Shown here in pieces: positions 7,496 to 9,537 of a stretch of DNA of 64,000 nt (positions within the stretch are counted from its first letter, which is position 1; the number at the start of each line of letters is the position of its first letter). The translations under genes were made by a program, and so were the position numbers. This DNA comes from Spirochaetales bacterium (GTDB taxonomy: Bacteria; Spirochaetota; Spirochaetia; JABEVK01). The stretch lies in contig JBAXAI010000004.1 in NCBI GenBank assembly GCA_037142615.1, positions 104,654 to 168,653 of the forward strand, in the 5' to 3' direction. The notes under the pieces are model-generated. The model worked only from the letters and a program-made list of their open reading frames with translations, was not told where the DNA came from and searched no databases.

Positions 7496-7764
7496 TGCTT
7501 TGACGGAGACGAGTACGCGTCCACGGTTCCCGAGAGAGACCCCCCCCGGCTGAAAGGGGGTTGTTCACGGGGCGCCCAAAACCCCTCCCGAGCCGAACCC
7601 CCAACGGAAGCTTGCTTCCCAGTAGACGGTTCCGACAGTCCCTCGACAGCGGACGAAGAGCGCACCCGGCGTCGCGCCGGCGTGAACCGAGGTGGTACCG
7701 CGACCTACTTTGTGGGTCGTCCTTGGAAGTTCTGGGCTGTTGCAGCCCGCCCAAGGAGGCCGTT
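7496..7764 (+). promoter_or_regulatory. T-box riboswitch (Thr specifier ACC), apparently translational
   Basis: Stem I with AGTA, AGAGA and GCTGA motifs; ACC at 7581-7583; stem II with CAGTAG; stem III; T-box AACCGAGGTGGTACCGCG at 7685-7702; alternative helix pairs over the SD. Confidence 0.9.
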
Positions 7765-9537
7765 ATGGCCGTTACCTCCGTCGCCCAAGCCCGCCTGAAC
7801 GAAGACGAACTGTTGTACAAAAAACGCCACTCGCTCGCCCACGTGATGGCCGAGGCCGTGCTCGAGCTTATCCCCGAAGCCCAGATTGCCATCGGCCCCC
7901 CCGTCGACAACGGGTTCTACTACGACTTCGAACTGCCCCGCAGCCTCAAAGAGGAAGACCTCGCCGGCATCGAGGCGAAAATGCGGGAAATTCTCGCCAG
8001 CAAGGCCAGTTTTGACAAACAGATCGTGAGCAAGACGGCGGCCGGCGACGTTTTTTCCGGCCAGAAGTACAAGCTTGCCATCCTGAACGATCTGCCCGAC
8101 AACGAGGAGATCAGCCTGTATCGCAGCCACGGGTTCATCGACCTGTGTCGCGGGCCCCATGTCGATACCATGTCCCAACTCGATCCCAGCAGTTTTCAGC
8201 TTACCCGCATCGCCGGAGCCTATTGGAAGGGCGACGAGCGCAACGCCCAGTTACAGCGCGTGTACGCCTTGGCCTTCCACGATCACGCCGGCCTCGAAGC
8301 GCATTTGGCCTTCTTGGCCGAAGCCGAAAAACGCGATCACCGGCGCCTGGGCACCGAGCTCGACCTGTTCCACCTCGACTCCGAAAACCCCGGACAGATT
8401 TTTTGGCACCCCAACGGCTGGAGCATTTGGCGGGTGATCGAAGACTACGTGCGCGGTAAGGTTCGCACCGCCGGCTACAAAGAGGTGAAGACCCCTTTCA
8501 TCATGCCGCAGAGCCTCTGGGAACGCTCGGGCCATTGGGCCAAGTACCGCGACGCGATGTTCGTCACCGAAAGTGAAAAACGACAGTTCGCGCTCAAACC
8601 CATGAACTGCCCCGGCCACGTCGAGATCTTCCGTCAAGGCCTGCGCAGCTACCGCGAATTGCCCCTTCGACTGGCCGAGTTTGGCAGTTGCACCCGTAAC
8701 GAGGCTACCGGCGCGCTCCACGGCATCATGCGCATCCGCGGCTTCGTGCAGGACGACGCGCACATCTTCTGCACCGAAGACCAGATTGAAGCCGAAGTGA
8801 AAGACTTCTGCGACCTGCTCAGCGAGGTCTACAAAGACTTCGGTTTTGCCAAAGAGACCATCGAAGTCAAACTCTCGCTGCGCCCCGAGATGCGCCTGGG
8901 TGACGATGCGACCTGGGACCGCGCCGAGGCTGCCCTGGGCAACGCCTGCCGTGCCGCCGACTTTGAGTTTGTCGAAATGCCGGGGGAGGGCGCGTTCTAC
9001 GGGCCGAAGCTCGAGTTCACCCTCATTGATGCGCTCGGCCGCGGTTGGCAGTGCGGCACCATTCAGCTTGACTACCAACTGCCTTCGGCTGACCGCCTCA
9101 ACGCCACCTACATTGGCGAAGACGGCTCCAAGCACCACCCGGTGATGCTCCACCGCGCCATCCTTGGTTCGTTGGAGCGCTTCATCGGCATCCTCATCGA
9201 GAACTACGCCGGCGCCTTCCCCGTTTGGCTGAGCCCCGTGCAGGCCTGCGTGATCCCTGTCAGCGGCAAGTTCGCCGCGTACGCCGAAAAGGTGCGCGAC
9301 ACGCTGAATGCTGCCGGGTTCCGGGCCGAGGCCGACGTCAGCGACCAGAAGATGGGCGCCCGCATCCGCGATGCGCAGATGCGCAAGGTTCCGTACATGC
9401 TGGTGGTGGGGGGCAACGAAGAAACCGATGGCACCGTCAGCGTGCGCGACCGCACCGGAGTCCAGCACCCGGTGATGAAGTTGCCCGAGTTCGGCGACTG
9501 GCTGGGCGACCGCGTGACGCAGAAAGTGATGGTTTGA
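7765..9537 (+). CDS. thrS: Threonine--tRNA ligase (short form without N-terminal TGS domain)
   Basis: [74 protein letters not shown]. Confidence 0.97.

Follow-up and report, generated by a model that had tools for sequence, protein, structure and literature searches.

Introduction

T-boxes are textbook elements of Gram-positive bacteria, and the thrS T-box of Bacillus carries the threonine codon ACC as its specifier. The translational operator of Escherichia coli thrS works through a protein effector, threonyl-tRNA synthetase (ThrRS), which binds tRNA-like hairpins near the Shine-Dalgarno sequence (SD). A 2008 survey reports T-box regulation of thrS in nearly all the Firmicutes that it covered, and its Table 3 gives T-boxes in none of six spirochaete genomes (PMC2494555). 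Translational T-boxes are portrayed in section 6.1 of PMC7583486 as bistable RNAs in equilibrium, and the same article mentions a few that keep a long Stem I. A truncated Stem I is typical of the actinobacterial class II model and not obligatory. According to the methods of PMC7778990, the database TBDB confined its search for translational T-boxes to Actinobacteria and to leaders whose Stem I is truncated, so that a leader of the type described here would not be classed as translational there. My own literature search returned no paper describing a spirochaete T-box, with subscription journals and the web tables of Rfam and TBDB lying outside the search. This study concerns the leader of thrS in a 64,000-nucleotide (nt) stretch of a Spirochaetales genome (hereafter the window), which an earlier note, made from the letters alone, had read as a threonine T-box acting on translation. 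The leader is a full-length T-box, with a long Stem I and specificity for threonine, that precedes thrS and has lost its terminator, and all of this is solid; translational control by sequestration of the SD is the best reading of its output, and a moderately probable one.

Results

A full-length threonine T-box precedes thrS

A search of 401 bases (7400-7800) with the Rfam model RF00230 matched the plus strand at 7491-7727 over all of the model's 219 positions, with 64 bits and E 8.7e-14, and in a search of the whole 4.27-Mb genome this leader (E 2.2e-13) was the sole T-box match. A default Rfam search of the window, run at the gathering threshold, reported two tRNAs and left the T-box unlisted, while an E-value threshold revealed it; the gathering score of 93 bits is the curators' cut-off and not a biological feature. 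Orthologous thrS leaders of the same class score up to 93.9-110.9 bits, so the shortfall of the window's leader reflects divergence or composition. Folding the whole leader against shuffles showed no extra stability (z -0.68), which is uninformative and common for long leaders.

Every leader element that the earlier note had named was present in the sequence where the note had placed it (Table 1). Stem I is of full length, about 97 nt, and shows no truncation: the three motifs AGUA, AGAGA and GCUGA are all in place, both elbow-binding motifs (AG bulge and distal loop) are kept, and UGA...GAG at the base forms a putative K-turn. The specifier ACC matches the amino acid of the regulated gene and is the sole invariant codon register, being ACC in 38 and ACU in one of 39 leaders (three of them read by eye), which supports the threonine specificity claimed for the leader. 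When 38 distinct leaders were aligned with MAFFT, GAA-N-ACC-N-CUCC emerged as the 3' side of the specifier loop, where the window has CAA-A-ACC-C. The window thereby deviates from a canonical T-box in two respects, a CAA instead of a GAA triplet in the S-turn and a C instead of a purine at the base 3' of the specifier (7584). This last position, usually a conserved purine in T-boxes, is C in 23 and A in 16 of the 39 leaders.

The cmscan alignment also placed Stem II, the IIA/B element, Stem III and the bulge UGGUACC between two helices, all of which had been foreseen. The conserved T-box sequence AACCGAGGUGGUACCGCG lies at 7685-7702, and helices A1 and A2 covary. Applied jointly to nine terminator-less leaders, RNAalifold recovered the fold of a canonical T-box, in which 32 of 48 pairs showed compensatory two-sided changes, distributed over Stem I, Stem II, Stem III, A1 and A2. 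Such changes place the sensor under selection and argue against a dead relic.

Table 1. Features of the thrS leader and its surroundings, in window coordinates.
Feature	Position	Strand	Basis or remark
Chemotaxis-receptor gene	5765-7417	minus	MCPsignal domain
Sigma-70-like promoter TTGACC-17 nt-TATCAT	7460-7488	+	10/12 matches; shuffles have a mean of 0.1 such sites
T-box leader (Stem I, Stem II, IIA/B, Stem III, antiterminator-type helix)	7491-7727	+	RF00230; RNAalifold gives the same fold for 9 relatives
Stem I (K-turn base, specifier loop, AG bulge, distal loop)	7497-7593	+	cmscan alignment; motifs kept in 38 aligned leaders
Stem I motif AGUA (specifier loop)	7512-7515	+	cmscan alignment
Stem I motif AGAGA (AG bulge)	7533-7537	+	cmscan alignment
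Distal loop GCUGAAA	7549-7555 (GCUGA 7549-7553)	+	cmscan alignment
Specifier codon ACC (Thr), context CAA-A-ACC-C-CUCC	7581-7583	+	Complementary to anticodon GGU
Stem II (~7596-7631) and IIA/B hairpin (~7633-7645)	7596-7645	+	cmscan alignment; Stem II pairs covary
Stem III	7662-7684	+	cmscan; alignment pairs 278-283/293-299 with compensatory changes
Helix A1, 5' strand CCGAGG, part of the conserved T-box sequence	7687-7692	+	Pairs with C7721-G7726
T-box bulge UGGUACC	7693-7699	+	Between A1 and A2; UGG (7693-7695) is complementary to the CCA end of the tRNA
Helix A2 hairpin of 9 pairs with the loop UUU	7700-7720 (G7700-C7708/G7712-U7720)	+	Folds; sequence covaries among relatives
Switching strand UCCUUGG	7720-7726	+	Pairs with 7687-7692 (ON) or 7751-7757 (OFF)
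Nested hairpin GGGCUG-UUG-CAGCCC, no U-tract	7734-7748	+	Brings switching strand and SD together
Sequestrator 3' strand CCAAGGAGGCC	7751-7761	+	Contains SD AGGAGG (7754-7759)
thrS, threonyl-tRNA synthetase, 590 amino acids, ATG 7765-7767	7765-9537	+	tRNA-synt_2b, HGTP_anticodon, tRNA_SAD
tRNA-Thr(GGU), presumed ligand	15034-15105	+	Discriminator U73; CCA not encoded

The terminator was lost from the thrS leader

No terminator-like site was found in 7350-7900, in agreement with the earlier note, nor did my own scan find one as far as 70 nt into the thrS coding sequence. For comparison, T-boxes were sought in 61 genomes of the window's class and in 151 genomes drawn evenly from the phylum. One T-box match each was present in 37 of the 61 class genomes, ten of them above the Rfam cut-off, and 36 of these 37 T-boxes stood directly before thrS, so that the survey of thrS leaders foreseen in the earlier note yields a thrS T-box in 36 of the 61 genomes. 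The gene was identified by tblastn directly downstream in 29 of the first 30 loci, and later regions brought the total to 36 of 37.

The 36 thrS leaders were scanned for a hairpin that overlaps the CGUCC strand of the antiterminator and is followed by a U-rich tract (the leader L003 was read by eye). Such a terminator, with a hairpin of -25 to -55 kcal/mol, was present in 29 leaders, including that of L022, the sole genome from a neighbouring genus within the same family as the window. The remaining seven lack it; four of them come from the window's genus and three from a sister genus. A terminator was likewise absent from two metagenomic relatives, L190 and L141, and from a further sister-genus genome, whose T-box is cut by the contig end. 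The ThrRS N-termini of L190 and L141 are 84% and 67% identical to that of the window, and in both about 200 structured nt lie between T-box and SD. In two genomes of a fourth genus, which belongs to the window's family, the 330-400 nt before thrS contain no T-box (L254:1-345 and L255:1100-1520; genomes 99% and 97% complete), and the leader appears to have been lost there. The order consists of only 12 species genomes. The T-box of the window is a descendant of the transcription-terminating thrS T-box that is widespread in the class, and its terminator was lost. The idea that the 3' strand of the old terminator turned into the SD found no support, as MAFFT aligned the SD of the genus with the SD of the terminator-bearing relative itself.

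The switching strand has two alternative pairings of nearly equal predicted energy

The strand that closes helix A1 can alternatively pair with the SD region. This sequestrator comprises seven Watson-Crick pairs (U7720-G7726/C7751-A7757), to which four more (7715-7718/7758-7761) are added if G7719 is bulged, and it covers A7754-A7757, the first four bases of the SD. The helix closes over the hairpin at 7734-7748 and is part of both the minimum-energy and the centroid fold. The layout recurs in all four genomes of the genus, where a strand CGUCCUUGGAA is followed by a hairpin that differs in sequence from genome to genome, by AGGAGGCC, by 3-4 nt and by the start codon.

Energies were compared between an ON state, in which helix A1 was enforced and the bulge left open, and an OFF state, in which the 5' strand of the T-box was kept single-stranded. 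In the window the two modelled conformers were nearly isoenergetic (-39.5 vs -39.1 kcal/mol). The predicted ensemble energy of OFF minus that of ON ranged from -0.6 to +3.8 kcal/mol in eight terminator-less leaders, while in 28 terminator-bearing leaders OFF was predicted to be favoured by 3.3-20.9 kcal/mol. Near-equal energies of the two states in terminator-less leaders are the bistability that PMC7583486 describes for translational T-boxes. For the window, the SD was predicted to be unpaired with a probability of 0.30 when the T-box helix is present and 0.11 when it is absent, and the means for the four genomes of the genus were 0.30-0.46 (ON) and 0.11-0.14 (OFF).

The sister genus offers some covariation between lineages in favour of a translational output: in its genome G011 the switching strand is CCAGCG, a matching CGCUGG(AG) lies beside the SD, and the duplex of its own two strands reaches -12.0 kcal/mol, against -6.5 for a strand of the window's type on the same site. 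All comparisons of the sequestrator rest on four to nine sequences.

The regulated gene and the presumed tRNA ligand

The encoded ThrRS has a class II core, an anticodon-binding domain and a second additional domain. A TGS domain is usual at the N-terminus of bacterial ThrRS; no Pfam match to one was obtained in the 590 residues, and relatives start at the same place, with the N-terminus MA(V/M)T conserved among them. The nearest named ThrRS loci belong to a Spirochaetales metagenome-assembled genome (MAG; 72% identity) and to Treponema or Treponemataceae MAGs (57-63%), which bears out the assignment to a spirochaete made from the sequence alone. thrS looks monocistronic, and a gene for a hybrid histidine kinase (HisKA, HATPase_c, receiver and Hpt domains) follows downstream at 10141-11835.

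The tRNA-Thr(GGU) gene lies in the same window, 7.3 kb downstream of the leader. It forms a pair with a tRNA-Trp(CCA) gene about 220 nt away (15034-15396), an order kept in all 11 class genomes examined. The other tRNA-Thr genes of the genome are at G000 C1:346586-346657 and C1:457669-457741, and U73 is the discriminator in all three as well as in the tRNA-Thr(GGU) of ten other genomes of the class. Complementarity between the fourth base of the T-box bulge and the discriminator is the usual covariation and not obligatory. The bulge begins with UGGA, matching U73, in 27 of the 29 terminator-bearing leaders; the mismatching UGGU or UGGC stands in the other two (UGGU in L113) and in all seven terminator-less genomes of the class sample. 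As these genomes are related, the shift may represent one or two events.

Promoter, RNA libraries and habitat

The leader is intergenic, between a divergent chemoreceptor gene and thrS. The promoter proposed earlier was recovered with 10 of 12 consensus matches, and TTGACC-N17-TAnnAT also occurs in the aligned relatives L028, L026 and L141; transcription would be expected to start near 7495. Two metatranscriptome libraries of a single study supplied contigs for 7505-7701 and 7507-7695, each about 190 nt without a mismatch. These contigs begin about 10 nt after the predicted start and are consistent with a start near 7495, with the proviso that contigs cannot show RNA ends and that DNA carry-over is possible. 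The two runs contained no contig matching the thrS coding region, and the uncovered part proves nothing. Freshwater or lake water is the label of twenty sequencing runs in which the stretch occurs whole or in part, and no use was made of rows with a small share.

Distribution across the phylum

Only six of the 151 genomes drawn evenly from the phylum had a T-box match. The element is rare in the large, well-studied spirochaete genera and common among the families of the window's class, which fits the zero out of six in Table 3 of the 2008 survey (PMC2494555). The description of the phylum as an unexpected one is therefore apt for the spirochaetes at large, and does not extend to the class, where 37 of 61 genomes have a T-box.

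The single T-box of the class sample that does not precede thrS (L002:1501-1763) has the top score of the class, 111.8 bits, combines a canonical terminator with UAC, a codon for tyrosine, and stands before a gene for a multi-pass membrane transporter (from 1840). This tyrosine T-box may have been acquired separately. A scan of metagenomes with the 5' half of the T-box as pattern matched at least 117 stretches, and 80 loci were examined. A thrS-like gene followed in four of them, of which three were useful (L128, L141 and L190), and the remaining loci were T-boxes of other organisms and genes.

Discussion

A translational output is favoured as the most economical account of a conserved sensor, a missing terminator and an SD 25 nt downstream. 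Stem I would read the anticodon of tRNA-Thr(GGU) through the specifier ACC. The CCA end of an uncharged tRNA would pair with UGG (7693-7695) in the bulge and stabilise helix A1 (7687-7692/7721-7726), the ON state; otherwise 7720-7726 would pair with 7751-7757 over the hairpin at 7734-7748 and bury the first four bases of AGGAGG, the OFF state. I infer both the binding of tRNA and its effect on ribosome binding.

Several observations weigh against this account. The covariance-model score of the leader is under the curated cut-off (64 vs 93 bits). U7696, the fourth base of the bulge, faces discriminator U73, a U-U mismatch in one of four acceptor-end pairs, and this mismatch may either weaken binding to suit an equilibrium switch or mark decay. 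The 3' strand of the T-box (CGUCCUU) is anti-SD-like in any T-box, and against 1,532 genomic AGGAGG sites it averages -11 to -13 kcal/mol. The pairing proposed earlier between 7715-7726 and 7751-7761 does exist, the helix 7720-7726/7751-7757 belongs to the minimum-energy fold, and the -18.7 kcal/mol of the window's own site is equalled by 3% of these sites; the own sites of the three congeners, however, are equalled by 19%, 64% and 45%, so that the extended complementarity to the SD is not conserved above chance. In the congener G002 the modelled ON state is favoured over OFF by 3.8 kcal/mol even in the absence of tRNA, and the leader could be constitutively ON. In the sister genus the SD lies in a loop whichever state is modelled, and the change is confined to the start codon (0.57 to 0.36). 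Long-range folds of L190 predicted no switch, such folds being unreliable across the gap of about 200 nt between its T-box and SD. Finally, a GGCC/GGCC hairpin (7758-7761/7767-7770) partly covers SD and AUG of the window in both states. This 4-bp hairpin, which joins the tail of the SD with codons 1-2 (AUGGCC; 7758-7770), recurs in each of the genus's four genomes, one of which, G001, has a G-U pair in it.

Part of this evidence would suit a T-box that senses tRNA-Thr and acts on the processing of the leader, on the stability of the mRNA or on termination by Rho inside thrS. Selection acts on the sensor and an intrinsic terminator was not found, the SD-pairing signal is weak in the congeners and the sister genus, and the two RNA-library contigs (7505-7701 and 7507-7695) both stop inside the T-box sequence, with contig ends that are not firm. 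A precedent exists in Bacillus subtilis, the thrS leader of which is processed upstream of its terminator. I nevertheless consider such an output unlikely: neither a cleavage site nor a rut-like element was identified, the simplest coupling is through the SD, which the switching strand can reach in the window and its genus, and Rho action or decay would follow from blocked translation anyway.

It is decidedly unlikely that the leader is a decaying relic, in which the terminator was lost, thrS became constitutive and the shape of the T-box persists only because the loss is recent. The compensatory double changes, in 32 of 48 pairs, come from nine terminator-less leaders of at least two genera with ThrRS identities down to about 72%, and each of the nine keeps an intact ACC, AGAGA, distal loop and T-box sequence. 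What speaks for decay is that RF00230 scores these leaders near the bottom of the class, at 53.5-73.1 bits where most others reach 75-112, although high G+C may by itself depress the score against a model that looks A+U-rich. The acceptor mismatch with U73 in seven out of seven terminator-less genomes and the change of the S-turn from GAA to CAA point the same way, but UGGU is also found in the terminator-bearing L113 and CAA in the terminator-bearing L024. An ON state that without tRNA is as stable as OFF, or more stable, would likewise be compatible with a relic, as would the complete loss of the T-box in a sister genus (two genomes, 97-99% complete).

Attenuation by a non-canonical terminator, formed by the hairpin 7734-7748 or the whole 7715-7761 stem without a U-tract, is very improbable, for although a GC-rich hairpin is conserved at this site in four of four genomes of the genus and is followed in L026 by UCUGUUUC, the window has no U run after either stem, the inner hairpin does not overlap the antiterminator and so could not be controlled by tRNA, and 3 nt separate the end of the outer stem from the ATG.

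Translational control by SD sequestration can be set into a wider picture, which I offer tentatively, as possible rather than probable. In this order of freshwater spirochaetes, the ancestral terminating thrS T-box would have been kept in one genus, rebuilt into switches that sequester the SD or the start codon in two genera on different platforms, and lost in a fourth, with the UGGU/UGGC mismatch as an adaptation to reversible equilibrium sensing and not a sign of decay. If true, translational T-boxes would have an origin independent of the actinobacterial one, in a leader with Stem I at full length. A single order that includes relatives with a terminator, others that lack one and others that lack the T-box altogether constitutes a natural series for a change of expression platform under a sensor that is kept. 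The series also raises the question whether kinetic (transcriptional) T-boxes differ from equilibrium (translational) ones in the tRNA affinity that they require. Annotation that keeps only Rfam matches above the cut-off would miss such low-scoring leaders.

Comparison with known systems

The nearest relatives by descent are the terminator-bearing thrS T-boxes of other spirochaetes (L022, L012 and L003), which are orthologous and share ACC, the same motifs and a tRNA-Thr with U73. They differ from the window's leader in their terminator of -25 to -55 kcal/mol with a U-tract and, in 27 of 29 cases, in UGGA. With the transcriptional thrS T-boxes of Bacillota the leader has in common the gene, the order of domains (Stem I, II, IIA/B, III, T-box) and a threonine specifier; these are described in PMC12452182 as terminator/antiterminator systems, often in tandem, whereas the window has a single T-box and no terminator.

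The thrS operator of E. coli resembles the window's leader, as predicted here, in controlling the initiation of translation through an SD-adjacent RNA structure that relates to tRNA-Thr. The window, however, has no mimic of an anticodon arm, and its element is a T-box. An operator of the E. coli type was itself considered for the locus and rejected, as no hairpin resembling an anticodon arm was found and the element is a T-box.

In its proposed mode of action the leader comes closest to the translational ileS T-boxes of the actinobacteria Mycobacterium and Nocardia, as they are presented in PMC7583486 and PMC7778990: these too lack a terminator and carry a bulge for UGG-CCA pairing, the 3' strand of the helix stabilised by tRNA alternatively pairs with the SD region, and the conformers are bistable. 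What sets the window's leader apart is its amino acid (Thr instead of Ile), gene (thrS) and phylum, a fourth bulge base that mismatches the discriminator, and a Stem I of full length with AG bulge and distal loop, where the actinobacterial T-boxes are mostly truncated. The leader arose from terminator-bearing thrS T-boxes of its own lineage, so its origin would be independent of the actinobacterial class.

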